Assembly: GCA_045627385.1 (NCBI GenBank)
Contig: JAZQNO010000025.1
Span: forward strand, 81,997-145,996
From: Bacteroidales bacterium
GTDB taxonomy: Bacteria > Bacteroidota > Bacteroidia > Bacteroidales > UBA1402
Length of the DNA: 64,000 nucleotides
Direction of reading: 5' to 3'
Made by a program: the position numbers and the translations under genes. How positions within the stretch are numbered: the first letter of the stretch is position 1; the number at the start of each line of letters is the position of its first letter. This document shows, one piece after another, positions 5,277 through 61,229 of the stretch. The notes under the pieces were generated by a model. That model was not told the DNA's origin and ran no database searches. It worked only from the letters and a program-made list of their open reading frames with translations.

Positions 5277-6502
5277 TGAACTACGTGATCCGCTGTCCGA
5301 AATGCGGTCGGGCCATCGAGTCCTTCGCCGAGTGGTTTTCGCTCGGCCAGGCCTGTCCCGACTGCGGCTGCAAGCAGGGTGAAATCGAATATGCAGCCGA
5401 CTATTCCCGTCTGCCCGACTATTTCAAGGGCAATCCCGAGAGTTTCTGGCATTATTTCGAGTTCCTTCCTCTGCAGCATAAGGAAAACATCGTCAGTTTC
5501 GGTGAAGGTGCCATTCCCATTGAAGAATGGGATTTTCTGGAGCGTTTTGCTGAAGAAAAATACGGTGTCAGCTGCAAGGTCAATGTCTATCGCAACGATC
5601 TGAACGGCGGCACGCACACCTTCAAGGACATCGCCGCCTCGCTGGCCGCCTCGCTCTTCAAGGAAAACGGAATCAAGGAATTCTGTGTGGCCTCGACGGG
5701 CAACACGGCTACCGCCTACAGCAAGTATCTGGCCAAGGCGGGTGTCCATTTCACGGTATTTGTTCCGAACGATGTCTGCCCCGATTCTGTGGCCGAAATG
5801 CGTTCCTACGGACAGACTGTCGTCATCTCTAAGGGCAATTACGCCCAAGCCAAAAAGGAAGCCGCCGATTTCAGCTCCTCCAACAAGGTGCTGATTTCGG
5901 CCGGCAATATCGATCCCATCCGAGTGGAGGCCAAACGCACCATGGTGTTCGAGTATCTGCGACAGTTGGGAAAAATGCCGGACATGTATTTCCAGGCTGT
6001 TGCCGGCGGTACAGGCCCCATCGCCCTTTACAAAGGATATCGCGAACTCAGGAAAACCGATCCGTCGCTGAAATTGCCTCGTATGGTGCTGGTTCAGCAG
6101 GATTTGTGCGACCCCATGGTTCAGGGCTGGGAGCGTGCCGTACGGGAAGGCTTCCCCAATGGATACGAAAAGAATTATCCCGTTATCGAGGAACCCAAGA
6201 CAAAGATCTCGATTCTTTCGACGGGCAATCCGGGCATGTTCCCGATCATTGCGCCCATCGTCAGGGAAAGCGGCGGCACTTTCGTGCGCGTCGCCGAGTC
6301 TGAACTGGTCCGTCTGGGCCGTTGGGTGCTCGATGAAAAAGGCGTTCTGCTGGGTCCCGCTTCCATCGTCTGTCTGGCCGGTTTCTGCCAGGCATTGGAA
6401 GAAGGTCTGGTGGCCGACGGACAGACCGTTCTGCTCAATACGGGCGAGGGCTGCGGCCGCAACCGGGTATTCGGAGATGCAGTGAAGGCCTTCAAGGCTT
6501 GA
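5276..6502 (+). CDS. threonine-synthase-fold PLP enzyme, cysteate synthase-like (CapA type)
   Basis: 408-aa ORF with an N-terminal Cys4 ribbon (CPKCG...CPDCG), the PLP-lysine block GGTHTFKDIAAS and the STGNTATAY block. It is translationally coupled to the acyltransferase upstream. Confidence 0.7.
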   Translation: MNYVIRCPKCGRAIESFAEWFSLGQACPDCGCKQGEIEYAADYSRLPDYFKGNPESFWHYFEFLPLQHKENIVSFGEGAIPIEEWDFLERFAEEKYGVSCKVNVYRNDLNGGTHTFKDIAASLAASLFKENGIKEFCVASTGNTATAYSKYLAKAGVHFTVFVPNDVCPDSVAEMRSYGQTVVISKGNYAQAKKEAADFSSSNKVLISAGNIDPIRVEAKRTMVFEYLRQLGKMPDMYFQAVAGGTGPIALYKGYRELRKTDPSLKLPRMVLVQQDLCDPMVQGWERAVREGFPNGYEKNYPVIEEPKTKISILSTGNPGMFPIIAPIVRESGGTFVRVAESELVRLGRWVLDEKGVLLGPASIVCLAGFCQALEEGLVADGQTVLLNTGEGCGRNRVFGDAVKAFKA

Positions 6503-48552: not shown

Positions 48553-49545
48553 ATGATGATTCCGAACATTCCGACCGACTGCAATCTGCTTGTCGTGCTG
48601 GGGCCGACTGCCTGCGGCAAGACCCGCTATGCCGTCGCGTTGTCGAAGGCCCTCGATGAGGCTTGGCGGGCCGGCGAGTTGCCCGTCCCGTCAGGCGTTT
48701 CCGACCCTTCGGCCTGGAAAGCCGAAGAAATGCCGGTGGAAATCATCAGCGCCGATTCCCGTCAGGTCTATAAAGGCATGGATATCGGCACCGGAAAAGA
48801 CCTCTCGGAGTATTTCCTGCCCGAAGGGCGCCAGGTGCCCTGTCATCTGGTGGACATCTGCCAGGCCGGCACCAAATACAATGTCTACGAATACCAGCGT
48901 GACTTTGTGCGCGTTTTCCGGGAAATCCGTTCCAGAGGCCATTTCCCCATCCTGTGCGGCGGCACCGGCCTCTATATCGAAGCCGTTCTCAAAGCCTATC
49001 CCCTGGTGAGCGTGCCCGAGAACCCCGAATTGCGCCAATCCCTGCAGGACAAGACATTGCCCGAGCTGGAAGCCATCTTGGCGGATTACAAGCACCGCCA
49101 TCAGGATGAATTGCATAACCATACAGATACCGACACGCTCAAGCGCGCCCTTCGCGCCATCGAAATAGAAGCGTATTACGAAGACCATGCCGGTGAACTT
49201 CAGCTCGCCGTCGACACCTATCCCGATCTGCATCCCTGCATTCTCGGCCTGGAGGTCGAGCGTGAGCTTCGCCGCGAGCGCATCAGCCGCCGCCTGCGCG
49301 CCCGTCTCGATGAAGGGATGGTCGACGAAGTGCGTGCCCTGCTCGAAGGGGGCATCCCGGCCGAAGACCTTATTTATTACGGCCTCGAATACAAATATCT
49401 GACGCTCTATCTGACCCATGCCCTCACCTATGAAGAAATGGTGAGTCAGTTGGAAACCGCCATCCACCAGTTCGCCAAACGGCAGATGACCTGGTTCCGA
49501 GGCATGGAGCGCCGTGGCACGGTCATACATTGGCTGAAACCTTGA
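48553..49545 (+). CDS. miaA: tRNA dimethylallyltransferase
   Basis: It has the P-loop GPTACGKT and SADSRQVYKGMDIGTGK. The ATG at 48553 is preferred. Confidence 0.9.
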   Translation: MMIPNIPTDCNLLVVLGPTACGKTRYAVALSKALDEAWRAGELPVPSGVSDPSAWKAEEMPVEIISADSRQVYKGMDIGTGKDLSEYFLPEGRQVPCHLVDICQAGTKYNVYEYQRDFVRVFREIRSRGHFPILCGGTGLYIEAVLKAYPLVSVPENPELRQSLQDKTLPELEAILADYKHRHQDELHNHTDTDTLKRALRAIEIEAYYEDHAGELQLAVDTYPDLHPCILGLEVERELRRERISRRLRARLDEGMVDEVRALLEGGIPAEDLIYYGLEYKYLTLYLTHALTYEEMVSQLETAIHQFAKRQMTWFRGMERRGTVIHWLKP

Positions 49546-49553
49546 GAATTCCT

Positions 49554-50027
49554 ATGAAAGTGATACTCCTTCAGGTGGGAAAGACCACCGACGACTACGC
49601 CCTCAAAGCCATTCAGACCTATGCGGAACGGCTGAAGCATTACGTCAGTTTCCAAATCGAGACCCTTCCCGACCTGAAGGCGACCAAAAACCTTAGCGAA
49701 GCGCAGATCAAGGCCCGCGAAGCCGAGGCCATCCTGCCCTGGGTGAAACCCGACAGCCAGGTGGTGCTGCTCGACGAGCGCGGTCTGGAGCAGACTTCCG
49801 AGCAGTTCGCTTCGTGGATGCAGAAGAAAATGTCGTCGGGCTGCCGCCAACTGGTCTTTGTCATCGGTGGCCCTTACGGATTCGACAAAAGCGTTTACGA
49901 TGCAGTAAACGAGCGTATTTCTCTCTCGAAAATGACCTTTTCGCATCAGATGGTCCGCGTATTCTTCGTGGAACAGCTCTACCGGGCCATGACCATACTC
50001 AACCACGAGCCCTACCATCATTCCTGA
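49554..50027 (+). CDS. rlmH: 23S rRNA (pseudouridine1915-N3)-methyltransferase
   Basis: 157 aa from the ATG at 49554, SPOUT/RlmH-like (FVIGGPYGF). Confidence 0.88.
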   Translation: MKVILLQVGKTTDDYALKAIQTYAERLKHYVSFQIETLPDLKATKNLSEAQIKAREAEAILPWVKPDSQVVLLDERGLEQTSEQFASWMQKKMSSGCRQLVFVIGGPYGFDKSVYDAVNERISLSKMTFSHQMVRVFFVEQLYRAMTILNHEPYHHS

Positions 50028-50076
50028 GAAAAAAATATATCGAGGAATACTTTTTGCATATTCTGCATTTATTACT

Positions 50077-50084
50077 TACCTTTG
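50077..50084 (+). promoter_or_regulatory. -7 box TACCTTTG (with TTTG -33-like element at 50053-50056) for the ilv leader
   Basis: It matches TAnnTTTG, with a 20-nt spacer to the upstream TTTG. It lies 24 nt upstream of the leader ATG. Confidence 0.5.
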
Positions 50085-50107
50085 TCGCCGTCAATAAAAA
50101 CAGACAA

Positions 50108-50173
50108 ATGAATTTCTTCAAGTATCAGGTGAATGTCGTGGTGTCTCTGCCTGTCGTCGTGACAGCGAGATAG
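50108..50173 (+). CDS. ilv leader peptide MNFFKYQVNVVVSLPVVVTAR (7 Val in 21 residues)
   Basis: Hand translation gives Val runs VNVVV and VVV. The stop codon sits at the foot of an antiterminator-type hairpin. Confidence 0.7.
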   Translation: MNFFKYQVNVVVSLPVVVTAR

Positions 50174-50206
50174 GAAAGACGTTTGCCCATACCGGAAGTT
50201 TCGGAC

Positions 50207-50242
50207 GCCTTTCCTGCATCATGGTGGGGAAGGCTTTTTTTT
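50207..50242 (+). terminator. attenuator terminator upstream of ilvD
   Basis: GCCTTTCC (50207-50214) pairs with GGGAAGGC (within 50226-50234) and is followed by T8. The 5' arm can alternatively pair with AGGAAAGACG at 50172-50181. Confidence 0.7.
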
Positions 50243-50266
50243 AATGATTCAATTCGGAATAAGGAT

Positions 50267-52099
50267 ATGAAAATCGCATTGAGAAGCTCGGTTTGTACGG
50301 AAGGTCGCCGTATGGCTGCCGCGAGAGCCCTTTGGGCTGCCAATGGTATGAAGAAAGAACAGGTGGGCAAACCCATCATTGCTGTGGTCAATTCGTTCAC
50401 CCAGTTTGTTCCCGGTCACGTGCACCTGCACGAAATCGGTCAGGAAGTGAAGGCCGAGATCGAACGCCTGGGCTGCTTCGCCGCCGAGTTCGACACCATC
50501 GCCATCGACGACGGCATCGCCATGGGCCACGACGGCATGCTCTATTCGCTGCCCAGCCGCGACATCATCGCCGACAGCGTCGAATATATGGTCAATGCCC
50601 ACAAGGCCGATGCCATGGTGTGCATCAGCAACTGCGACAAAATCACCCCAGGCATGCTGATGGCCGCCATGAGACTCAACATCCCCACCATATTCGTCAG
50701 CGGAGGCCCGATGGAGGCCGGCGAGCTGGACGGAGGCCATCTGGACCTCATCGACGCGATGATCCAGTCGGCCGACCAAAGCGTTTCCGACGCTCAGATG
50801 GCCCGTGTGGAGGCCAGCGCTTGTCCGGGCTGCGGCTGCTGCTCGGGCATGTTCACCGCCAATTCCATGAACTGCCTCAACGAGGCGTTGGGTATGGCTC
50901 TTCCCGGCAACGGCACCATCCTGGCCGACCATGTCAACCGCCGGAAACTTTTCCTCAAGGCGGCCCGTCAGATTGTGAAGAATACCTTCGCCTATTACGA
51001 AGACGGTGACGAGTCGGTTCTGCCGCGTTCCATCGCCACCCGCGAAGCCTTCCTCAACGCCATGACGCTCGACATCGCCATGGGCGGTTCCACCAACACC
51101 GTGCTGCATCTGCTGGCCATCGCCCACGAGGCTGGAGTGGATTTCAGCATGGACGACATCGACATGCTTTCACGTCGGGTGCCCTGCCTGTGCAAGGTGG
51201 CTCCCAATACCAAACTGTTCCACGTGCAGGACGTCAACCGCGCCGGAGGCATCCATTCCATCCTGGGCGAACTGGCCAAGGCCGGACTCATTGAAACCGG
51301 AGTGAAACGGGTCGACGGTCAGACACTGGCCAAAGATCTGGAAGACTATTCCCTGTCGTCGCCGAAGGTGCTGGAGGAAGCCAAAGACTTCTATCTGAGC
51401 GCTCCTTCCCACCGGTTCAATATGAGTTTAGGCTCGCAGGATTCCCGTTTCGACAGTCTGGACACCGACCGCGCAAAGGGCTGCATCCGCGACATGGACC
51501 ACGCCTACACCAAGGACGGCGGTCTGGCCGTGCTCAAGGGCAACATCGCCCTCAACGGCTGTGTGGTCAAGACCGCGGGTGTGGACGAGTCCATCTGGAA
51601 ATTCAGCGGTCCCGCCAAAGTGTTCCATTCACAGGAAGACGCCTGCGAGGGCATCCTCGACGGCAGCGTCCGCTCGGGCGATGTGGTGCTGGTCATTTTC
51701 GAAGGCCCGAAAGGCGGTCCCGGCATGCAGGAAATGCTGTATCCCACCTCATACATCAAGTCGCGCCATCTGGGCAAAGAGTGCGCCCTCATCACCGACG
51801 GCCGCTTTTCAGGCGGCACCTCGGGCCTGTCCATCGGCCACGTTTCTCCCGAAGCCGCTTCAGGCGGAGCCATCGGACTGGTCCGCAACGGAGACATCAT
51901 CGACATCGACATCCCGGCCCGCAGCATCAGCGTGCGCCTGAGCGACGAAGCGCTGGCCCGTCGCCGCCGCGAGGAAGAGGCCAAAGGCCGTCTGGCCTTC
52001 AAGCCCGTCCGCGACCGTCAGGTCTCCCAATCATTGAAAGCCTACGCACAGGCCGTTTCGTCGGCCGATCTGGGTGCAGTCAGAATCATCGAAGACTAA
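50267..52099 (+). CDS. ilvD: dihydroxy-acid dehydratase
   Basis: 610 aa from the ATG at 50267 (MKIALRSS), with the Fe-S ligand block CDKITPGM. The track ORF start at 50183 runs through the attenuator. Confidence 0.95.
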
Positions 52100-52111
52100 T
52101 CAACTACCGAC

Positions 52112-53815
52112 ATGTCAGAAAGAATCAACGGAGCGGAAGCCTTGATGCGCTCCTTCAAGGAAGAGAATGTCAGAACCATCTTCGGATACCCGGGCGGATT
52201 CATCATCCCCGTATTCGATGCCTTATACTCCTATCAGAAAGAATTCGACTGCATTCTGAGCCGTCACGAGCAGGGTGCCGTCCATGCCGCCCAGGGCTAT
52301 GCCCGCGTGACGGGCGAACCGGGCGTGGTCATCGTCACTTCCGGACCGGCCGCCACCAACATCGTCACCGGCGCCGCCGACGCCATGCTCGACAGCACGC
52401 CTCTGGTCATCATCACCGGACAGTCCATCGTGGCCCAACTGGGTACCGACAGCTTCCAGGAAACCGACGTCATCGGCATCACCCAGCCGGTCACCAAATG
52501 GAGCTACCAGATACGCCGTGCGGAAGACCTGCCATGGGCGGTCGCCCGCGCCTTCTACATCGCCCGTGAAGGCCGTCCCGGACCGGTGGTGCTCGACCTG
52601 ACCAAGGATGCCCAGACACAGCTGCTCGACTTCGAATACAAGAAATGCCGCTTCATTCGCAGCTACCAGCCCTATCCGGCTCTCAACCGGACCGAAGTGG
52701 CCGAGGCCGCCCGCCTCATCAACGAATCGGAGAAGCCTTTGGCCGTAGTGGGGCAGGGCGTCATGCTGGGCCACGCCGAACAGGAACTCTATGCCTTTTT
52801 GGAAAAAGCCGGCATCCCGGCTGCTTCCACCCTCATGGGCCTCTCCATCATGTCCGACGATTATCCGCTCAACATGGGCATGGTGGGCATGCACGGCAAT
52901 GTGGCTCCCAACCGCATGACCAACCGGTGCGACGTGCTCATCGCCATCGGCATGCGCTTCTCCGACCGCGTGACCGGCGACATCCGCTCCTACGCTCCCC
53001 AGGCGAAAATCATCCATTTCGACATAGATCCCTCCGAACTCAACAAGAATGTCAAAGTCGACCAGACGGTGCTGGGCGACGTGAAGGCTTCGCTGCCGGC
53101 CGTGACCGCATTGCTGAAGCCGGCCAGACACACCGACTGGATAGAAAGTTTCAAACCTTTCCGCCAGCAGGAAGACCGCGAAGTCATCCAGCCCGAACTC
53201 CATCCTTCGGCTCAGCCGATAACGATGGCCGAGGCGGTGAAATGCGTGTCGGACCAGTCCGGTTCCAAGACCGTTCTCGTGGCCGATGTGGGACAGAACG
53301 AAATGATATCGGCCCGCTATTTCAGCGCGGGCCCCGGACGCCAGTTCATCGCCTCTGGCGGTCTGGGTACCATGGGCTTCTGCCTGCCTGCCGCCGTAGG
53401 TGCCGCATTGGGCGCTCCCGATGCCGAAATCTATGCCGTCTGCGGTGACGGCGGTTTCCAGATGACGGTTCAGGAACTGGGCACCATCATGCAGTATCAG
53501 CTGCCGGTGAAGATGCTCGTGCTCAACAACAGCTATCTGGGCATGGTACGCCAGTGGCAGGAACTTTTCTGGGACGAACGCTATTCGTCCACCCGCATGC
53601 AGAATCCCGATTTTGTCCGCCTGGCCTCGGCCTACGGCATAACCGGCCGTTCGGTAAGCCGCAGAGAAGAACTTTCCGAGGCTGTCGGCGAGATGATTGC
53701 CCACAAGGGCCCCTATCTGCTCGAAGTCAAGGTCGAGCAAAAGGGGTTGGTCTATCCGATGATTCCGGCCGGAAAACCCATCACCGACATCATCATGGGC
53801 AAAGAAACCAAGTAA
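52112..53815 (+). CDS. ilvB: acetolactate synthase large subunit (biosynthetic)
   Basis: 567 aa, a TPP enzyme with the GDGGFQM block. Confidence 0.93.
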   Translation: MSERINGAEALMRSFKEENVRTIFGYPGGFIIPVFDALYSYQKEFDCILSRHEQGAVHAAQGYARVTGEPGVVIVTSGPAATNIVTGAADAMLDSTPLVIITGQSIVAQLGTDSFQETDVIGITQPVTKWSYQIRRAEDLPWAVARAFYIAREGRPGPVVLDLTKDAQTQLLDFEYKKCRFIRSYQPYPALNRTEVAEAARLINESEKPLAVVGQGVMLGHAEQELYAFLEKAGIPAASTLMGLSIMSDDYPLNMGMVGMHGNVAPNRMTNRCDVLIAIGMRFSDRVTGDIRSYAPQAKIIHFDIDPSELNKNVKVDQTVLGDVKASLPAVTALLKPARHTDWIESFKPFRQQEDREVIQPELHPSAQPITMAEAVKCVSDQSGSKTVLVADVGQNEMISARYFSAGPGRQFIASGGLGTMGFCLPAAVGAALGAPDAEIYAVCGDGGFQMTVQELGTIMQYQLPVKMLVLNNSYLGMVRQWQELFWDERYSSTRMQNPDFVRLASAYGITGRSVSRREELSEAVGEMIAHKGPYLLEVKVEQKGLVYPMIPAGKPITDIIMGKETK

Positions 53816-53834
53816 CAGCAAACGATTCAAGGAT

Positions 53835-54389
53835 ATGGAAAAGCAATTGTATACCATCAACGTGTATTCCGAAAATACGGTCGGTATCCTCAATCAGGTG
53901 ACCAATGTCTTCACGCGCCGTCAGGTCAACATCGAGAGCCTGACCGTGTCGCGCTCGTCGATTCCCGGAGTGCATAAATACACCATTACCGCCGAGACCG
54001 ACGAGGAGACCATTTCCAAGATGGTGCACCAGATCGAGCGCCGCATCGATGTGCTGAAGGCGTTCTATTACGTCGACGATGAAATCATTTTCCAGGAAAT
54101 CGCCCTGTACAAGATTTCCACCGACGTGGTGCTCGAACACGGGGCGCTGGAGGAAATCGTGCGCCGCTACAATGCGCGCATTCTCGAGCTGAACCGCACC
54201 TACACGGTCATCGAGCAGACGGGTCATGTGGAGGAAATCGAGCGTCTCTATCAGGAACTGCAACCGCTTGGCATCCTGCAGTTTGTGCGCTCCGGACGCA
54301 TCTCTATCACCAAATCGCCCATCGAGCGCCTGAACGAATTCCTCGAAGAAATGGAGTCCAAGCGCCAGGTCTGCGAACAACAGCCGTAA
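53835..54389 (+). CDS. ilvN: acetolactate synthase small (regulatory) subunit
   Basis: 184 aa with the N-terminal ACT domain YTINVYSENTVGILNQVTNVFTRR. Confidence 0.9.
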   Translation: MEKQLYTINVYSENTVGILNQVTNVFTRRQVNIESLTVSRSSIPGVHKYTITAETDEETISKMVHQIERRIDVLKAFYYVDDEIIFQEIALYKISTDVVLEHGALEEIVRRYNARILELNRTYTVIEQTGHVEEIERLYQELQPLGILQFVRSGRISITKSPIERLNEFLEEMESKRQVCEQQP

Positions 54390-54504
54390 CGGCATAGGTG
54401 AGTTGGGCTGTAAAAGGTTTGTTTGCTGACTTCTTAGCTGAAATGTCTGTCCTGTAATAATGGCGCATTATTTGTATGTTTTGATTACCGGTAGTGAATT
54501 ATAA

Positions 54505-54693
54505 GATTCGATTGGTAATGATTGTGTTACTGCATCGATGTCTGAATTAATAATACCACCAGGCAGAAAAGCAAAATTGAAAATCAATATTTCACCAAAT
54601 GCTGAAGGCGATTTTACGTGGTGTGTAGACATTAAAGGTCTTGATGATGTATCTCTTCAAATTTTTATATCGGCGACAGTGGTTGGTTTATGA
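54505..54693 (+). pseudogene. possible 3' remnant of a DUF1573-like gene
   Basis: The open frame reads DSIGNDCVTASMSELIIPPGRKAKLKINISPNAEGDFTWCVDIKGLDDVSLQIFISATVVGL*. It is bounded upstream by an in-frame TAA. The pattern resembles the C-terminal half of DUF1573 domains, judged from memory. Confidence 0.3.
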
Positions 54694-54721
54694 TATAAGT
54701 TATACTTCATAAAATTAGCAT

Positions 54722-55060
54722 ATGAAAAGACTCCTATTTTCAATTCTATGTACAACAGTGATTATGGCTTTTTTATTCCTGATTCTATGTGTTGTGAGGA
54801 ATAGAACTATTTCTCCAATCGTAATGGTCAATGTCGAGGCATTGGGAGATTACGAATATCCTCACCAGAATAATCGTGGTACTTATGGTGGTATAGATGA
54901 TGATATGTGGCTGATATCAGAATGCTCTTTGCCCAGAGGCGAAGCCGAAAGTTGGTTTATTCTTCATGGGGGAGATTATAGCTGTTCGGGTTGGTGTTGT
55001 GACAGTTGTCATGAAACCTGGTATTGCGGCAATGGTGATATTGTTACTAATTGCAATTAA
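54722..55060 (+). CDS. signal-anchored Cys-rich peptide with NVEAL(G) motif (NVEALA-family-like), copy 1
   Basis: 112 aa with an N-terminal TM segment, NVEALG at residues 37-42 and a C-terminal region with 7 Cys ending GWCCDSCHETWYCGNGDIVTNCN. Confidence 0.85.
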   Translation: MKRLLFSILCTTVIMAFLFLILCVVRNRTISPIVMVNVEALGDYEYPHQNNRGTYGGIDDDMWLISECSLPRGEAESWFILHGGDYSCSGWCCDSCHETWYCGNGDIVTNCN

Positions 55061-55068
55061 TTCAATGA
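55014..55068. repeat. 55-nt block 100% identical to 56609-56663 (peptide 3' end + junction + lipoprotein ATG)
   Basis: By direct comparison, both copies read AAACCTGGTATTGCGGCAATGGTGATATTGTTACTAATTGCAATTAATTCAATGA. Confidence 0.9.
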
Positions 55069-56252
55069 GAAACACGTCCTATTTATTCTTGTTGACTGGC
55101 GTGGTTTTGTCATTGTCGTCCTGTCGGCACCGGGAGGTAGATGACAAAGTGTATATGGCAGACTCGACTGGAATCGTATTCGACTATGATCTGGAAAAGG
55201 CTGCTGCAAATGATTCGATGATCTCTATAAGTCAGATTGTCGATTCTGTCGTTTACATTCCTTTGGAATTTGACATTCTTGCCTCCTTGAGACCCGACTA
55301 CCTGATGACTGTCGAGACTGACGAGGGCTTTGTCGTTTCTTCCAATTCCACGCAGGGTTTCAATGGTGTTTTTCAGTTCGACAAGAACGGCAGATACCAA
55401 AAGACACTTGTCGGAAAAGGCCATGGCCACAACGAATTGGTCCCGTATTTCTACAATTGGTCATACAATGAGACTGAAAAACTGATTGTTTTGAGTGGAA
55501 GGGGTTATTACTGCGAACTCAATGCAGAAACCGGAGAAGTGAGCATGCTGAAAAAGTCAGAATATGCCTATCAGACCATGATTCTTGTTGAAAACAAGCG
55601 GTTTCTGGCTCTTCCTGTGGAGGATGATCCCCAGATTCCATTTCTTGTGCTGACTGACTCGGACGGGAGCACTGTCGCGAAATATTTCACTAAACATAAG
55701 AAAAACGCCTACGCCGAAACTCCGCAATCTGGTTGGAGTCCGACCGAACATCGTATATTGGATCAGGACAAGCAAGGCCGACCGTTGTTCAAGGATATGT
55801 ACAATGATACCGTCTATGCATGGTCGGACAAAGGTCTTCAGCCGGCTTTCTGCCTGAATGCCGGAGACCTGAATCCCAAAGTGAAAGATGCTGGAAAGAG
55901 CGTAAGAAAAGGACAACAGGTGTTTGTCTATCATGTGGCCACAGTTGGAAAGTATCTTCTATGCTTTTATCATTACAACGGCAATCGGGCGGAAAGCGTT
56001 TTCGATATGGAAACTGGAAAACTCGTTGCCAATGAGCGATTGCCCATCCATGCAAGGGGTGTTGATTTGTGGAAGACAAGGTCGCCCCATTTTGTGTCTT
56101 TGGATACTCCGACGGGAAAACGTATCCTGGTCGGTGTCACATGGGCTTCAGGTGATTGCCTGTATGGAGTGGTGAACCCGTCGGACGTTTCGGATTTTCT
56201 TGAAGTGGATGCCGATTCCAACCCGGTCCTGGTGAAAATGTATCTGAACTGA
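55065..56252 (+). CDS. beta-propeller-type lipoprotein (6-bladed propeller / BF3164-like family, from memory), copy 1
   Basis: 395 aa from the ATG at 55065. It has the lipoprotein signal LSLSSC and a GKGHGHNEL block. It starts 4 nt after the peptide stop. Confidence 0.85.
   Translation: MRNTSYLFLLTGVVLSLSSCRHREVDDKVYMADSTGIVFDYDLEKAAANDSMISISQIVDSVVYIPLEFDILASLRPDYLMTVETDEGFVVSSNSTQGFNGVFQFDKNGRYQKTLVGKGHGHNELVPYFYNWSYNETEKLIVLSGRGYYCELNAETGEVSMLKKSEYAYQTMILVENKRFLALPVEDDPQIPFLVLTDSDGSTVAKYFTKHKKNAYAETPQSGWSPTEHRILDQDKQGRPLFKDMYNDTVYAWSDKGLQPAFCLNAGDLNPKVKDAGKSVRKGQQVFVYHVATVGKYLLCFYHYNGNRAESVFDMETGKLVANERLPIHARGVDLWKTRSPHFVSLDTPTGKRILVGVTWASGDCLYGVVNPSDVSDFLEVDADSNPVLVKMYLN
56159..56248. 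repeat. 90-nt block identical except 1 nt to 57779-57868 (3' ends of the two lipoprotein genes)
   Basis: It encodes LYGVVNPSDVSDFLEVDADSNPVLVKMYL in both copies. The single difference is G/A in AACCC[G/A]GTCC. Confidence 0.9.
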
Positions 56253-56310
56253 GATTACTCTGCTAAAATTCTTGAGCGGACAAAACTACAATTTCTAAAA
56301 ATTAAATGTT

Positions 56311-56655
56311 ATGAAAAATAAACTTATTTCTATTATTTGCGCAACAATGATTGTGTCCTGTTTGTTTCTCATCATATGTATTGTGAGAAATAAAATGATA
56401 TCACCAATGGTAATTGCCAACGTCGAGGCATTGGGAGATTACGAATATCCTCATCAAAACAATCAAGGAACTTGTGGTTATGGTGGCATCGATTATGATA
56501 TGTGGTTGATTTCAGAGTGTTCTTTGCCCCAAAGTGTAGCAATTGAGTGGTATAATAATAACCGCGGCAAGCACGGATGTATGGGTTGGTGTTGTGAGAG
56601 TTGCTCTCAAACCTGGTATTGCGGCAATGGTGATATTGTTACTAATTGCAATTAA
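56311..56655 (+). CDS. signal-anchored Cys-rich peptide with NVEAL(G) motif, copy 2
   Basis: 114 aa with the same architecture as copy 1. It has 8 Cys after the NVEALG motif and the identical tail TWYCGNGDIVTNCN. Confidence 0.85.
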   Translation: MKNKLISIICATMIVSCLFLIICIVRNKMISPMVIANVEALGDYEYPHQNNQGTCGYGGIDYDMWLISECSLPQSVAIEWYNNNRGKHGCMGWCCESCSQTWYCGNGDIVTNCN

Positions 56656-56663
56656 TTCAATGA
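56609..56663. repeat. partner of the 55-nt identical block at 55014-55068
   Basis: Established by direct comparison of the two sequences. Confidence 0.9.
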
Positions 56664-57862
56664 AAAAGACTTTCTGTTTGCCCCTGATGATTGGTGCAGT
56701 GCTGTCATTGCCGTCCTGTCGGCACCGGGAGGCTGACAAAGCGGTGTCTGGTGCAGCTGTTGGGCAGTCCGTTGCCGGCATCTGCTCTTTTGACTTGTCG
56801 TCCGCCGTCGTGAAAGACACATCCGTTTTAATCAACGGCATTGTCGATTCCTTTGAATACATACCCTTGGAATTTAATTTGGACGCCTCTTTGCAACTGG
56901 AATATCTGATGACCGCAGAAACGGAAAACGGACTGCTGGTTTCCAACAATTGTGCCAGGTGGTTCAGAGGCGTTTTTCTGTTTGGCAAATCTGGAGATTT
57001 TAAATCAACGCTCATCGGATTGGGCCATGGGCACAACGAATTGTCACCAGACTTCTACGGGTGGGCATACGACAGGTACAAAGGAGAATTGCTGATGCTT
57101 GGCCGAGGCATTTGTTATGTCTTCAACTGCAGGTCGAATGAAGGCAGGCTTCTCAAAGCGGATGACGCTTTTATGGATATCGTCCCGACTGACGGAGACG
57201 TGTATCTGGTCAGGCCGGCAAGCGCCTCAAAGGAAGGAAACCCCTTCCTGAAACTGGTCAGCGGTAAGGGAACCGCAGTCAAGGAATTCCGGTATGAAAA
57301 CAAGATGTCTGTCTACTACGAGGTGCCCACGGCGGATTTCGGTCCGAACGAGCATCGTCTGTTGAAACAAGGAGGAAGTGGAGAAGCCTTGTTCAAAGAC
57401 ATGTTCAACGACACAATCTATGTGCTCGAACACGATGTCCTTCATCCGCGTTATTGTCTGGAAACGGGAAGTAAGCGTCCGAATGTCAAGGATGTGTTGA
57501 ATAAGAAAAAGAAAGCCGGGCAAATTTACCTCTCCGATATCGCGACAGCTGGCGATTATCTGCTATGTCAGTACGAATACGCAGGAGAACCTTTCAATCA
57601 ACTGGTTTTTGAAATCTCCACCGGAAAGGTGGTGGCCGCATCCCATTTCGGGCTGGACATGCGTGGGGCCGGAACGGTTCACGCCTTCAGAAACAGGTTC
57701 CCTTTCCAGTTGCAGACTCCCACCGGACATGTCATCTGGATGGGTATGACAGCTGTCGGAGAAAGCATCCTGTATGGAGTGGTGAACCCGTCGGACGTTT
57801 CGGATTTTCTTGAAGTGGATGCCGATTCCAACCCAGTCCTGGTGAAAATGTATCTGAAATAA
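56660..57862 (+). CDS. beta-propeller-type lipoprotein, copy 2
   Basis: 400 aa from the ATG at 56660. It has the lipoprotein signal LSLPSC and a GLGHGHNEL block. It starts 4 nt after the peptide stop. Confidence 0.85.
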   Translation: MKKTFCLPLMIGAVLSLPSCRHREADKAVSGAAVGQSVAGICSFDLSSAVVKDTSVLINGIVDSFEYIPLEFNLDASLQLEYLMTAETENGLLVSNNCARWFRGVFLFGKSGDFKSTLIGLGHGHNELSPDFYGWAYDRYKGELLMLGRGICYVFNCRSNEGRLLKADDAFMDIVPTDGDVYLVRPASASKEGNPFLKLVSGKGTAVKEFRYENKMSVYYEVPTADFGPNEHRLLKQGGSGEALFKDMFNDTIYVLEHDVLHPRYCLETGSKRPNVKDVLNKKKKAGQIYLSDIATAGDYLLCQYEYAGEPFNQLVFEISTGKVVAASHFGLDMRGAGTVHAFRNRFPFQLQTPTGHVIWMGMTAVGESILYGVVNPSDVSDFLEVDADSNPVLVKMYLK

Positions 57863-57868
57863 TTATTT
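57779..57868. repeat. partner of the 90-nt block at 56159-56248
   Basis: Established by direct comparison of the two sequences. Confidence 0.9.
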
Positions 57869-57889
57869 GGCGTTGTCGGAGACATGTTG

Positions 57890-57897
57890 TATCTTTG
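57890..57897 (+). promoter_or_regulatory. -7 box TATCTTTG upstream of ilvC
   Basis: It matches TAnnTTTG and lies 52 nt upstream of the ilvC ATG. Confidence 0.45.
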
Positions 57898-57948
57898 CAT
57901 AAAATTTGAATATTTAGCGTAAGAATCGCATATAAATTAAATTTTATC

Positions 57949-58992
57949 ATGGCAAAAATGAATTTTGGCGGTGTCATTGAAAATGTTGTGACCCGCGAAG
58001 AGTTTACACTGGCTAAGGCCCGCGAAATTTTGAAAGACGAAACCATTGCAGTCATCGGTTACGGTGTGCAGGGTCCCGGTCAGTCTCAGAACCTGCGTGA
58101 CAACGGTTTTCGCGTGATTGTCGGTCAGCGTCCCGGCAAGACCTACGACAAGGCTGTCGCCGACGGTTGGAAACCCGGCGAAACGCTGTTCGGCATTGAA
58201 GAAGCCTGCCAGAAGGGCAGCATCATCATGTGTCTGCTTTCCGACGCGGCCGTCATGTCGGTATGGCCCACCATCAAACCTTATCTGACCGCCGGAAAGG
58301 CACTTTATTTCTCCCACGGTTTCGCCATCACTTGGAACGACCGCACCGGTTGCGTTCCTCCCGCAGATATCGACGTCATCATGGTGGCCCCCAAGGGATC
58401 GGGCACCTCGCTTCGCACGATGTTCCTCGAAGGCCGTGGCCTGAATTCCTCCTATGCCGTCTATCAGGATGTGACCGGCAAGGCTATGGACCGCACCCTG
58501 GCACTGGGTATCGGCATCGGCTCGGGTTATATGTTCGAGACCACATTCCAGCGCGAGGCCACTTCCGACCTTACCGGCGAACGCGGTTCTCTGATGGGTG
58601 CCATCCAGGGACTGCTGCTGGCCCAGTACGAAGTGCTCCGCGAGAACGGACACACTCCCTCGGAAGCTTTCAACGAGACCGTCGAAGAACTCACCCAGAG
58701 CCTTGGACCGCTCTTCGCCCAGAAAGGCATGGACTGGATGTACGCCAACTGCTCGACCACTGCCCAGCGCGGCGCTCTCGACTGGATGGGTCCCTTCCAC
58801 GACGCCATCAAGCCGGTTGTCGAAAAACTCTATGCCAGCGTCAAGTGCGGCAATGAAGCACAGATATCCATCGACAGCAATTCCAAGCCCGATTATCGTG
58901 TCGGCCTTGAGAAGGAACTGCAGGCTCTCCGCGAAAGCGAGATGTGGCAGGCCGGCGCTGTCGTCCGCAAACTCCGTCCCGAAAACAACTGA
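57949..58992 (+). CDS. ilvC: ketol-acid reductoisomerase (class I)
   Basis: 347 aa with the GYGVQGPGQSQNLRDNG nucleotide fold. Confidence 0.95.
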   Translation: MAKMNFGGVIENVVTREEFTLAKAREILKDETIAVIGYGVQGPGQSQNLRDNGFRVIVGQRPGKTYDKAVADGWKPGETLFGIEEACQKGSIIMCLLSDAAVMSVWPTIKPYLTAGKALYFSHGFAITWNDRTGCVPPADIDVIMVAPKGSGTSLRTMFLEGRGLNSSYAVYQDVTGKAMDRTLALGIGIGSGYMFETTFQREATSDLTGERGSLMGAIQGLLLAQYEVLRENGHTPSEAFNETVEELTQSLGPLFAQKGMDWMYANCSTTAQRGALDWMGPFHDAIKPVVEKLYASVKCGNEAQISIDSNSKPDYRVGLEKELQALRESEMWQAGAVVRKLRPENN

Positions 58993-59006
58993 TTTAACGA
59001 ATTTTG

Positions 59007-59051
59007 CAGCCGGTACAGCTTTTTTATGGGTTGTACCGGCTGTTTTGTTTT
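59007..59051 (+). terminator. rho-independent terminator after ilvC
   Basis: A perfect 11-bp stem CAGCCGGTACA...TGTACCGGCTG is followed by TTTTGTTTT. Confidence 0.8.
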
Positions 59052-59099
59052 CAAATAGCCGTATTTTTGAGAACTGATTACAGATAAATTCTGCTGAAA

Positions 59100-59867
59100 A
59101 TGAAACGGATTGTTCTGCCTTTGCTGTTGGGCCTGTACTGCCTGTCCCTGACGGCTGCCGATTTCGAGCCCGAGTATCGGATGGGCTTCAAGGCCAGCCT
59201 GCGTGAATCGGTCAACAACTCTTTCTACCAATATTTCGAATATCCCGAAATCAGGGAAGACCTGGTCGTGAAAAAACGTTCGCGCCGTCAGATCGTGCAG
59301 TACGACTACGGAGAAGAAGCGCGCCAGGGCAGGGTGACAGTCCTTTTCAGCGTCTATCGAGGCGGCCGTATCACACGCATACAGGTGGTCAAAGGGCTCT
59401 GCCCCGAAATAGACCGCGAAGTGCGCCGTGCCATGAAGTCGGTCGCCTACGACCTCAGACTGGACGACCGTTTCAACGATGCGGAATACATCCAGAGCTT
59501 CTACATCAGTCCCGACGGCCGGAAGCGTACGGAAGTGCTGCGTGAGGAAAAAGTCTACATCAAAGCCGAAGAGCCGGCTGTTCCTCAGGGCGGTCGGGAA
59601 GGTCTGTCGCAGTTTGTCCGCGATCATCTGGAGTATCCCCAGCGGGCATTGGAAAACAATCAGAGCGGAGTGGTCGAAACCAATTTTCTGATTGACGAAG
59701 AAGGAAATGTGGCTGCCGGGTTTGTCTATTGCAGCGGCAACTCCGATCTGGACCGCGCAGCTTTAAGGCTGGTGGCCGAAATGCCGCAGATGACGCCTGC
59801 CCGTCAAAACGGACAATCGGTCAAATCCTGGTGGACCTGGCCGATTGTGTTCAATGTTCGTCGGTAA
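59100..59867 (+). CDS. TonB C-terminal-domain protein
   Basis: 255 aa with a signal peptide and a C-terminal TonB_C-like region (PQGGREGLSQFVRDHLEYPQRALENNQSGVVETNFLIDEEGNV). Confidence 0.7.
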   Translation: MKRIVLPLLLGLYCLSLTAADFEPEYRMGFKASLRESVNNSFYQYFEYPEIREDLVVKKRSRRQIVQYDYGEEARQGRVTVLFSVYRGGRITRIQVVKGLCPEIDREVRRAMKSVAYDLRLDDRFNDAEYIQSFYISPDGRKRTEVLREEKVYIKAEEPAVPQGGREGLSQFVRDHLEYPQRALENNQSGVVETNFLIDEEGNVAAGFVYCSGNSDLDRAALRLVAEMPQMTPARQNGQSVKSWWTWPIVFNVRR

Positions 59868-59872
59868 ATCGC

Positions 59873-61096
59873 TTATTTCAACAAGGCCAAAGCCGCGCTG
59901 ATGCGTCTGACGGCCTCGACGATGTTCTCATCGCTGGTGGCATACGACAGACGGAAGCAATCGGGTGCGCCGAAGGCGGCTCCGCCGACGGTGGCCACAT
60001 GGCCCACTTCCAACAGATACATGGCCAGATCCAGCGCATTGCCGATGGTGCGGGCAGGCAGTTCATTGCCGTCGACCGTTCCGCCGGCAAACTTTTTTCC
60101 AAAATAAGAACTGCATTTGGGGAACACATAGAAAGCACCCTGCGGCTCGCGTACCTCCAGCCCGGGGATTTCGCGCATCAGCCTGACAATCAGATTGCGG
60201 CGGCGTTCAAAGGCCACACGCATGTCTTCCACGCACTGCTGGCTTCCGCTGTAGGCCATGCGGGCGGCTTCCTGAGCCACCGAGTTGGGGCCCGAGGTAT
60301 ATTGGCCCTGCAGCTTGCTGCAAGCCTTGGCAATCCAGAGGGGAGCGGCCAGCCAGCCGATGCGCCAACCGGTCATGGCGTAGGCTTTCGACACGCCGTT
60401 GATGATGATGACACGGTCGCGGATGCTCTCGAACTGGGCGATGCTTTCGTGATGACCTATATAGTTGATGTGTTCGTAGATTTCGTCGGAGATGATGAAG
60501 ACCTGGGGATGTCGCTCCAGCACCTCGGCCAGCGCCTTGAGCTCCTCACGGCTGTACACGCTGCCGGTCGGGTTCGAAGGCGAGCAGAGGATGAGAGCCT
60601 TGGTCTTGTCGGTGATGGCAGCTTCCAGTTGGGCGGCGCTCATCTTGAAGTCCTGCTCGATGCCGGCTTCGACGATGACGTTCTTGCCTTCGGCCAGTTT
60701 GACCATTTCCACATAGCTCACCCAGTAGGGGGCCGGAACGATGACTTCGTCGCCGGGATCGACCAGAGCCAGGATGGCGTTGCAGACACACTGCTTGGCA
60801 CCGTTGGCACACACGATCTGTGCCGGATCGAATTCCAGTCCGTTCTCGTTCTTCAGTTTCTTGCAGATGGCTTTGCGCAGGGCAGGGTAGCCGGGAACGG
60901 GAGAATAGAAGGAAAAGTTGCGGTCGATGGCCTCCTTGGCAGCCTGTTTGATGGCGTCAGGAGTGAAGAAATCCGGTTCGCCGACGCTCATGTTGATGAC
61001 ATCGATGCCTTGAGCTTTCAGTTCGCTGCTCTTTTGGGACATGGCCAGCGTCTCGGAAACGGCAAGACTGGCCAAACGCTTGGAAATAGGGTTCAT
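59873..61096 (-). CDS. class I PLP aminotransferase (aspartate aminotransferase-like)
   Basis: It has the PLP-lysine block SKAYAMTGWRIG. The start could be 61096 (MNPISKRL) or 61105. Confidence 0.88.
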   Translation of the reverse strand: MNPISKRLASLAVSETLAMSQKSSELKAQGIDVINMSVGEPDFFTPDAIKQAAKEAIDRNFSFYSPVPGYPALRKAICKKLKNENGLEFDPAQIVCANGAKQCVCNAILALVDPGDEVIVPAPYWVSYVEMVKLAEGKNVIVEAGIEQDFKMSAAQLEAAITDKTKALILCSPSNPTGSVYSREELKALAEVLERHPQVFIISDEIYEHINYIGHHESIAQFESIRDRVIIINGVSKAYAMTGWRIGWLAAPLWIAKACSKLQGQYTSGPNSVAQEAARMAYSGSQQCVEDMRVAFERRRNLIVRLMREIPGLEVREPQGAFYVFPKCSSYFGKKFAGGTVDGNELPARTIGNALDLAMYLLEVGHVATVGGAAFGAPDCFRLSYATSDENIVEAVRRISAALALLK

Positions 61097-61155
61097 AGCT
61101 TGCATTCTATAAAAAAATGGTCACATGCCCTGAGGCAAATAACCATTCCGTTTTG

Positions 61156-61229
61156 TAGCGAGGCTCGGGATTGAACCGAGGACCTCATGATTATGAATCA
61201 TGCGCTCTAACCAGCTGAGCTATCTCGCC
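61156..61229 (-). tRNA. tRNA with CAU anticodon (Met elongator, or Ile2 if lysidine-modified)
   Basis: The hand-folded cloverleaf has D stem GCTC/GAGC, anticodon stem CATGA/TCATG with loop TTCATAA, T arm CTCGG-TTCAATC-CCGAG and a 5-nt variable loop. The acceptor stem has G1-U72 and an A7/C66 mismatch. No CCA is encoded. Confidence 0.8.

Follow-up and report, generated by a model that had tools for sequence, protein, structure and literature searches.

A probable accessory-gene hotspot between ilvN and ilvC in the ilv operon of an uncultured rumen Bacteroidales clade

Chromosomal hotspots of horizontal gene transfer lie between conserved core genes and are filled by homologous recombination without an integrase of their own. 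Hotspots between core genes are common, but one between the cistrons of an attenuator-controlled biosynthetic operon is unusual. Here, we describe a candidate of this kind in a 64,000-nucleotide (nt) stretch of a Bacteroidales bacterium (GenBank assembly GCA_045627385.1, contig JAZQNO010000025.1, positions 81,997 to 145,996), hereafter the window, in which a block of low-GC genes separates ilvN from ilvC in the ilvDBNC operon. The locus resembles core-flanked hotspots in its ilvN and ilvC flanks, in the differing low-GC cargo of a sister clade, in the empty site of outgroups, in the lack of an integrase, tRNA, or attachment-site (att) repeat, and in the presence of hipBA in some variants. It differs from them in that the site lies between two cistrons of a biosynthetic operon, in that ilvC acquired or kept its own promoter, and in that the cargo can borrow an attenuator-controlled promoter. 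We consider it probable that the ilvN-ilvC junction is an old, recombining accessory-gene hotspot inside the ilvDBNC operon of a genus-level clade of uncultured rumen Bacteroidales and that its cargo is read through from the ilv promoter. The observations behind this reading are the anatomy of the locus, the empty sites and alternative cargo of relatives, an ilvC promoter motif, attenuator elements, the pairing of two gene types (NVE and propeller genes), and conversion tracts.

Three further systems bear on the locus. Leader-peptide attenuation of ilv operons is classical in Proteobacteria and Corynebacterium (for example, PMC11857589). The window's operon likewise has a short open reading frame (ORF) with a run of Val codons, a U-run terminator just before the first structural gene, and a putative alternative pairing; it differs in its Bacteroidales host and sigma-ABfr-type promoter, in that the control may also govern foreign cargo, and in its apparent loss in the sister clade. 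The cargo resembles the Bacteroidales pairs of an NVEALA protein (PF14055) and a propeller lipoprotein (PF17170 DUF5128, PF15869 TolB_like), in which the gene for a small, signal-anchored protein bearing an N-x-EAL-A/G/S/T motif precedes, on the same strand, that for a propeller of 350-420 amino acids (aa), often in tandem arrays and sometimes with DUF1573 and Peptidase_S26 genes. Unlike those, the small proteins of the window are longer (112-114 aa), carry a rare six-Cys C-terminal domain, and score below the Pfam cut-off. Finally, relatives of that Cys-rich domain lead to the bacteroidetocins, which are class II, disulfide-bonded peptide toxins of Bacteroidetes with a double-glycine (GG) leader (PMC6671954).

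The ilv cluster runs on the forward strand as ilvD (dihydroxy-acid dehydratase, 50267..52099), ilvB (acetolactate synthase large subunit, 52112..53815), ilvN (acetolactate synthase small subunit, 53835..54389), and, after a gap at 54390-57948, ilvC (ketol-acid reductoisomerase, 57949..58992). These assignments come from the ORF listing, and Pfam confirmed all four enzymes. An earlier note on this DNA had described a 3.56-kb split between ilvN and ilvC, with ilvD, ilvB, and ilvN 12-19 nt apart; the exact figures are 3,559 nt for the gap, 12 nt between ilvD and ilvB, and 19 nt between ilvB and ilvN. That the insert is low in GC was also borne out by computation. The gap has a GC content of 44.1%, compared with 54-60% for the ilv genes, and is the minimum among all 3,559-nt intervals of the 64-kb sequence (outside the gap, mean 55.6%, standard deviation 1.3, and minimum 51.5%). 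GC at third codon positions (GC3) dips as well, to 0.32-0.37 in the small cargo genes and 0.52-0.58 in the large ones versus 0.69-0.76 in the ilv genes, and the cargo values are the lowest of any credible gene in the window. The hand counts of the note agreed with computation for the flanking ilv genes (about 55-60%) and for the second cassette (about 45-50%; computed, 47.0%), but its 28-40% for the first cassette was too low against a computed 44.7% (NVE1, 38.9%; BP1, 46.4%). The leading spacer is at 34.9%.

The gap holds the four complete genes and one gene fragment that the note had counted: two small genes (NVE1 and NVE2), each followed by a gene for a propeller lipoprotein (BP1 and BP2), and a 3' remnant of a DUF1573-like gene. 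Neither an integrase nor a transposase nor a tRNA had been seen in the insert, and our searches agree. Pfam on all five ORFs returned only DUF5128 and NVEALA and no integrase, recombinase, or transposase domain; the sole tRNA of the 64-kb window lies at 61155-61229; and no direct or inverted repeats bracketing 54390-57948 were found. Having no integrase, att-like repeat, or adjacent tRNA, the block does not have the marks of an integrase-mediated genomic island or integrative mobile element. The genes that flank it are housekeeping genes in conserved synteny. The insert had no blastn match in plasmid and phage collections, PADLOC defence models matched neither its cargo nor that of the sister-clade genome L002, a scan of 49000-60000 with Rfam at E <= 1 gave just a chance snoRNA match, and no further copies of the cargo genes were found elsewhere in the window.

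To place the junction among relatives, we searched one genome per species for IlvN; the 22 loci obtained were mapped by tblastn. Eight Bacteroidales lineages (L005, L006, L007, L008, L009, L012, L013, and L017) have an empty ilvN-ilvC junction of 41-150 nt, and those with enough flank show the same synteny as the window, miaA-rlmH-ilvD-ilvB-ilvN-ilvC-tonB-like. A ninth short spacer, of 138 nt, was found in L021, whose taxonomic label is doubtful. No NVE, BP, or DUF1573 remnants were seen by tblastn in the short outgroup spacers. Because relatives have empty sites, the block counts as inserted DNA when set against the ancestral operon, which is what the earlier note had expected such a comparison to reveal. 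Three other lineages (L010, L011, and L022) resemble the window in having an extra gene at the junction; they differ in that this gene, of about 0.75 kb, stands alone, encodes an acyl-acyl carrier protein (ACP) thioesterase, and has no relation to the window cargo.

The site is occupied by other genes in a sister clade consisting of L002, L003, L004, and the metagenome contigs L025-L029, all of them rumen or gut metagenome-assembled genomes. Within this clade, IlvB is 95-99% and IlvC 99.6-100% identical; identities to the window are 82% for IlvB, 84-91% for IlvN, and 92-93% for IlvC, which places the window as its sister. Between ilvN and ilvC, L002 carries four membrane-protein genes (275, 268, 293, and 318 aa) unrelated to the window cargo. 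L004 and L025 carry the four genes of L002, then convergent hipBA, and then, directly before ilvC, a DUF5128 gene 60% identical to BP2. In L029, the order is these four genes, hipBA, an internally deleted propeller of the type found on contig L024, a gene 61% identical to BP1, and ilvC. Island genes are low in GC in both clades, in contrast to the high-GC3 ilv genes, and BP GC3 is 0.52-0.58 in the window versus 0.41-0.44 in the sister clade. DNA similarity between the two clades stops exactly at the ilvN stop codon and returns at TTATTTGGCG, immediately 3' of the BP2 stop codon, so that the island ends in a conserved right border of 86 nt (57863-57948). This comparison indicates that occupation of the site predates the split between the window and the sister clade, or that the site was hit repeatedly, with reshuffling afterwards.

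Two of the sister-clade variants contain details of their own. The hipBA genes (hipA with HipA_C, 419 aa, and a helix-turn-helix [HTH] antitoxin of 100 aa; L025:3110-4678, minus strand, also in L004, L026, and L029) lie inside the island and are convergent to the operon. The shortened propeller at L029:4560-4848 is an in-frame internal deletion derivative whose signal peptide and last ~52 codons closely match the L024 propeller. This match suggests that L024, a contig of 40% GC, is itself derived from such an island, not from the genome of a separate donor.

Next, we examined how the operon and its cargo may be expressed. The Bacteroidetes sigma-ABfr promoter motif consists of a -7 TAnnTTTG with a -33 TTTG about 20 nt upstream (PMC7366714), and the full TTTG-N20-TAnnTTTG pattern occurs 6 times in the window compared with 0.39 expected. 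One match, TTTG-N20-TACCTTTG (50053..50084, + strand), is the predicted ilv operon promoter. It is followed on the same strand by a leader peptide ORF, MNFFKYQVNVVVSLPVVVTAR, with 7 Val in 21 residues (50108..50173), and by an attenuator terminator, an 11-bp hairpin plus T8 (50207..50242), that ends ~25 nt before the ilvD ATG. Folding of the leader region gave a z of -3.25, and AGGAAAG at ~50172-50178 is, as read from the sequence, a candidate antiterminator able to pair with the terminator's 5' arm. L005, L007, L008, and L009 have homologous Val/Ile/Leu-rich ORFs in the equivalent place, together with GCCTTTCC…GGAGAGGC-T-run hairpins. The attenuator that the earlier note had proposed before the ilv operon is thus present as a Val-rich leader ORF and terminator upstream of ilvD, with its leader type kept in four of the empty-site lineages. 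In the sister clade, the rlmH-ilvD spacer is ~80 nt (L002:6300-6395 and L004:6304-6399) versus 50028-50266 in the window, and it has a TAATTTTG or TACTTTTG box but neither a Val-rich leader ORF nor a terminator. Attenuation of the ilv operon appears to have been lost from the sister clade.

The right border of the island carries another full match, TTTG-N20-TATCTTTG (57866..57897, + strand), proximal to ilvC. In an alignment of the window, L002, L025, and L027, its -33 TTTG and the TTTG half of its -7 box are invariant, and L029 reads the same. The TATCTTTG box at 57890-57897 that the note had assigned to ilvC was confirmed, and the full TTTG-N20-TAnnTTTG lies at the same aligned position in three lineages. 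Independent expression of ilvC from a conserved promoter is therefore supported at the level of sequence. In L004, L025, and L029, convergent hipBA separates ilvC from the ilv promoter, and ilvC would need its own promoter there; that ilvC is cut off in these genomes would also account for the conservation of the promoter. The operon may tolerate invasion because its downstream gene, ilvC, keeps a conserved promoter of its own.

No such signal serves the cargo. The ilvC box is the sole + strand TAnnTTTG in 54390-57948, and no box with up to one mismatch upstream of NVE1 or NVE2 has a -33 TTTG. The note had also seen no terminator between ilvN and the cassettes, and none passed our terminator scan in the spacers of the gap, including that between ilvN and NVE1, where folding shows a weak hairpin alone. 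Folding of the 58-nt and 86-nt spacers gave nothing notable. The predicted operon-end terminator, with a 16-bp stem and a T-rich tail, is at 59006..59053 (+ strand; z = -7.3). Because the DUF1573-like gene is truncated at its 5' end, the promoter upstream of it would have been lost, and read-through from ilvN would then be the simplest way to express the four cargo genes. In sister-clade genomes, the ilvN stop codon is where the first cargo gene begins, or the two overlap (ATGA in L004). Such an overlap is the layout of translational coupling, which suggests that a foreign gene is coupled to ilvN there and that the cargo is co-transcribed with ilvDBN. It is plausible that the window cargo is likewise co-transcribed with the operon and attenuator controlled from the ilv promoter, in which case expression that responds to nutrients might come to foreign genes at no cost. 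The first sister-clade cargo gene (275 aa; L002:10553-11380 and L004:10532-11359) encodes a membrane helix, a coiled coil, and a weak C-terminal HTH.

The cargo itself begins, after an AT-rich spacer at the left edge of the island (54390..54504, + strand) whose first 37 nt are identical in the independent Logan contig L001, with the DUF1573-like remnant of ~62 codons (54505..54693, + strand). The remnant matches the C-terminus of the L024 DUF1573 gene (E = 1.5e-9; PF07610 on its protein), which on that contig precedes a homologous NVE-propeller module. In-frame stop codons lie upstream of the remnant, and the gene is therefore 5' truncated. NVE1 (112 aa; 54722..55060) and its paralogue NVE2 (114 aa; 56311..56655), both on the + strand, are 68% identical. 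Both start at the N terminus with a membrane helix, after which come the motif NVEALG, a linker that is disordered, and a compact domain in which six cysteines are conserved, GTCG…C…WCC[D/E]SC..TWYCG; the motif is at residues 36-41 in NVE1 and 37-42 in NVE2, past the helix at 2-28. The AlphaFold2 (AF2) model of NVE2, which is moderately confident, has helices at 2-28 and 32-42, a disordered linker, and a compact alpha/beta domain at 55-95.

NVE1 and NVE2 have the features of NVEALA proteins, namely, a hydrophobic N terminus, an NVEALA-like motif, and an adjoining propeller lipoprotein gene. Against PF14055, NVE2 scored 20.4 bits and P0001 22.6 bits, with a gathering cut-off of 27, and NVE1 had no match at E = 0.01; precomputed PF14055 matches are present in the profile-linked relatives P0043, P0044, P0046, P0048, P0056-58, and P0063. 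The NCBIfam model TIGR04101 (CCGSCS motif protein) was a sub-threshold match for NVE2 (21 bits versus a cut-off of 28) and was not relied on. Homologues of the long NVE form numbered 1 in a word-indexed search of 5.8 billion proteins, 43 in a profile search of that database, and 23 when 1.84 billion cluster representatives (50% identity) were searched exhaustively with a profile, and metagenome scans with NVE patterns found no relative. By these searches, the long NVE form with the six-Cys C-terminal domain is rare. The Cys-rich NVE subfamily is undescribed and the site within an operon is also new, whereas the cargo families are known but uncharacterised.

BP1 (395 aa; 55065..56252, + strand; LSSC lipobox, …LSLSSC) and BP2 (400 aa; 56660..57862, + strand; LPSC lipobox, …LSLPSC) are predicted lipoproteins of the six-bladed DUF5128 beta-propeller family that scored 35.5 and 27.2 bits, respectively, against PF17170 (cut-off, 22.9). 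The AF2 model of BP2, made from a 4-sequence alignment and of low confidence (predicted local distance difference test score, 53), was used solely to confirm a propeller-like, all-beta fold; its best fold match is 4RAA, the exported propeller BF0058 of B. fragilis. A metagenome scan with the BP profile found just 24-28% identical propellers, and Protein Data Bank (PDB) searches with the BP and NVE sequence profiles gave nothing significant. The genes are tightly spaced, with 4 nt between NVE1 and BP1, 58 nt between BP1 and NVE2, and 4 nt between NVE2 and BP2. The two cassettes of the earlier note are thus present as units, although we now see them as diverged paralogous modules of a recurrent Bacteroidales gene pair. 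BP1 and BP2 are 44% identical as proteins, and synonymous sites in their core are near saturation; given this value and the 68% of the NVE pair, the modules would be old paralogues and not a fresh duplication. Two tracts on the + strand stand out from this divergence: 54983..55137, covering the NVE 3' end and the BP signal peptide, is 85% identical to 56578-56732, and 56159..56248, the last 30 codons of BP1, is identical at 89/90 nt to 57769-57858 in BP2. Synonymous-site identity is about 0.7-0.96 in the tracts versus 0.3-0.6 in the BP core. Near-identical tracts at module borders are, on the sequence, a signature of gene conversion.

We determined whether the pairing of NVE and propeller genes recurs elsewhere. 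In 5/5 independent contexts with usable flanks (L039/40, L041/42, L043/44, L045/46, and L047), an NVE-type gene is directly followed on the same strand by a gene for a 390-420 aa DUF5128/TolB_like/DUF4933 propeller, which argues for NVE plus propeller as a conserved functional module. Additional small-gene/propeller pairs are present in 2 of the five loci, with L039/40 being a multi-copy array, and a DUF1573 gene lies upstream of the module in L024, L039/40, and L043/44. Genes of the Peptidase_S26 (signal peptidase I) family are found near the module in L043:3856-4770, L044:4024-4770, and L047:5956-6783. A-x-A/G is the classical signal-peptidase I site, and NVEAL-A/G ends in such a motif. A Peptidase_S26 gene beside DUF1573-NVEALA-DUF5128 fits dedicated cleavage at the A-L-A of NVEALA. 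In L041:136-3087 and L042:56-3007, a long NVE gene and two DUF5128 genes lie directly upstream of F-type ATP synthase beta/epsilon genes, a second instance of an NVE module beside a housekeeping operon.

The Cys-rich core (GTCG...C...WCCDSC..TWYCG) also occurs fused to GG leaders in P0039, P0061, P0067, P0069, and P0071, for example, as …NEMKNIKGG|SGTCG and …DQMSRVKGG|GTCG. P0067 (L049:7001-7231, in the locus L049:1-8670) has as neighbours a C39-peptidase ATP-binding cassette (C39-ABC) transporter, a C39-like/VKOR protein, a thioredoxin-like protein, and an outer-membrane efflux protein (OEP), and the locus lies on a conjugative element with relaxase, type IV coupling protein (T4CP), and MobC genes. 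It also holds two further 86-aa genes. The gene set around P0067 is that described for bacteroidetocins (PMC6671954), and the locus has the appearance of a bacteroidetocin-like export system carried by a conjugative element. Thus, relatives of the window's Cys domain share with bacteroidetocins leaders of 15-25 aa ending in GG near C39-ABC, VKOR/thioredoxin, and OEP genes and a conjugative element, a likeness at the level of leader and gene set. The window NVE proteins themselves lack the 15-16 aa leader ending in GG, which is confined to distant relatives, and have a membrane helix and NVEALG instead, their predicted mature part is ~70 aa versus 42-48 aa, and the C39-ABC transporter and thiol oxidoreductase that are present beside P0067 are absent beside the window NVE genes. 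Judged by these features, they are not bacteroidetocins.

On this basis, we infer that NVE1 and NVE2 give rise, through their C-terminal ~70 aa, to an exported and disulfide-bonded peptide, be it a toxin, a signal, or a structural protein, with the lipoprotein as its partner. This would give a first functional lead for the large group of uncharacterised NVEALA/propeller lipoprotein pairs of gut and rumen Bacteroidales, for which the sequences point to secreted peptides. A bolder proposal, which we put forward as a long shot, is that the GTCG...WCCDSC...TWYCG domain marks a hitherto undescribed peptide family of Bacteroidales, secreted, rich in disulfides, and bacteriocin- or signal-like, whose export can follow either of two interchangeable routes (GG leader with C39-ABC and thiol oxidoreductases, or NVEALA signal-anchor with signal peptidase and a dedicated propeller lipoprotein), and that two promoter-less modules are here wired to branched-chain amino-acid starvation through the ilv attenuator.

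Taken together, these results fit the following history. The ancestral state would be a contiguous, attenuator-controlled ilvD-ilvB-ilvN-ilvC, into which low-GC foreign DNA arrived between ilvN and ilvC before the split from the sister clade. Entry was most likely by homologous recombination via the conserved flanking genes, because there is no integrase, tRNA, or att-like repeat. Later replacement, deletion, tandem duplication, and gene conversion would have remodelled the site and left, in this genome, the 5'-truncated DUF1573-like gene and two diverged tandem NVE/BP modules. The NVE pre-protein would be cleaved after NVEAL[G/A] to give a disulfide-rich peptide of ~70 aa, and the lipoprotein may be its receptor, chaperone, or immunity factor. 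The four cargo genes would most likely be transcribed by read-through from the Val-attenuated ilv promoter, because their own upstream region is lost, no sigma-ABfr motif is present, and no convincing terminator lies between ilvN and BP2; ilvC would stay expressible through its right-border promoter. The mechanism of recombination, the co-transcription, the export and cleavage of the peptide, and the role of the lipoprotein are the parts of this history that we infer.

Several points weigh against it. An empty-site allele of the window's own species was not found, as an exact-protein look-up of ilvN gave one 1.7-kb contig (L001) that breaks off after the first 37 nt of the gap. Between the window and the sister clade, BP genes share just 60-61% identity versus 82-93% for the Ilv enzymes, and on these values independent uptake from a common gene pool is just as possible as vertical descent with rapid divergence. 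The window NVE proteins score under the Pfam NVEALA threshold, the Cys-rich domain of the NVE2 model has no PDB fold match, the S26 peptidase, the transporter, and the thiol oxidoreductase are absent from the window's locus, and a literature search on NVEALA and DUF5128 found nothing on their function. A weak hairpin at 54380-54411, overlapping the ilvN stop codon, could lower read-through, and the 332-nt AT-rich spacer between ilvN and NVE1 could hold a non-consensus or extracytoplasmic function (ECF)-sigma promoter.

Given these caveats, we weighed other histories of the block. The earlier note had implied a single recent event private to this genome, that is, one horizontal transfer from a low-GC donor. 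The strong GC and GC3 dip, the truncated gene at the left edge, the closest NVE homologue being on the 40% GC contig L024, and the left cargo being unrelated to that of the sister clade are all in keeping with such an event. However, it sits poorly with the sister clade, in which other low-GC cargo occupies the exact site and ilvC is directly preceded, beside the same right border, by propeller genes that share 60-61% identity with BP1 and BP2. Because both propeller types adjoin ilvC there and are yet only 44% identical to each other, BP1 and BP2 would have split before or outside this genome, and paralogues older than the genome disfavour a single private transfer. Moreover, BP GC3 in the window is already above that of the sister clade, and the L024-like BP remnant of L029 means that L024 may itself derive from such an island. 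We regard a recent private transfer as unlikely. It is very improbable that accessory genes always lay between ilvN and ilvC in the family and were lost repeatedly, since at least eight lineages of several families have 41-150 nt spacers without remnants and the cargo is not the same in sister lineages and has a foreign composition in every one of them; the thioesterase gene of L010, L011, and L022 does show that the junction is not inviolate in the order, but it is unrelated to the window cargo. An assembly or binning artefact, with a low-GC fragment of another organism joined into the operon, could be suspected because the source is probably a metagenome-assembled genome and because L001 ends just 37 nt past ilvN. 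Yet L001 reproduces those first 37 nt of the gap exactly, five independent sister-strain assemblies show the propeller-to-ilvC junction with the same border, and both junctions coincide exactly with gene ends, which makes an artefact scarcely credible.

The remaining alternative concerns how the cargo is expressed. Under it, the genes would be transcribed from a non-consensus or ECF-sigma promoter of their own in the 332-nt spacer and insulated from ilv regulation. The AT-rich spacer and the weak hairpin at the ilvN stop codon are compatible with this, as is the TAACTTTG box that the sister-clade propeller gene has for itself. Nevertheless, the hairpin has no adjacent T-run, the native upstream gene is truncated, and upstream of NVE1 and NVE2 there is no TAnnTTTG with a -33 TTTG, even when one mismatch is allowed. 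We hold an own promoter to be a real but lesser possibility, and read-through from the attenuated ilv promoter remains the reading that we prefer.

Three smaller observations concern the ilv genes and the composition of the window. A second low-GC patch at ~3.0-4.7 kb was considered as an island and rejected, as it runs from the 5' end of a glutamate-dehydrogenase-like gene across an intergenic region into the start of its neighbour. The ilvC of L025 (L025:6283-7326) has an in-frame TGA (GCAGTGACCTGG) where L002 encodes Gln-Gly-Pro-Gly, with the called start downstream at 6421, and is either a sequencing error or a pseudogene. Lastly, the 17 nt before the NVE2 start (56296-56312) and before the ilvC start (57931-57947), TAAAAATTAAATGTTAT and TATAAATTAAATTTTAT, are 88% identical, a likeness that may reflect a shared translation-initiation context or a trace of recombination.

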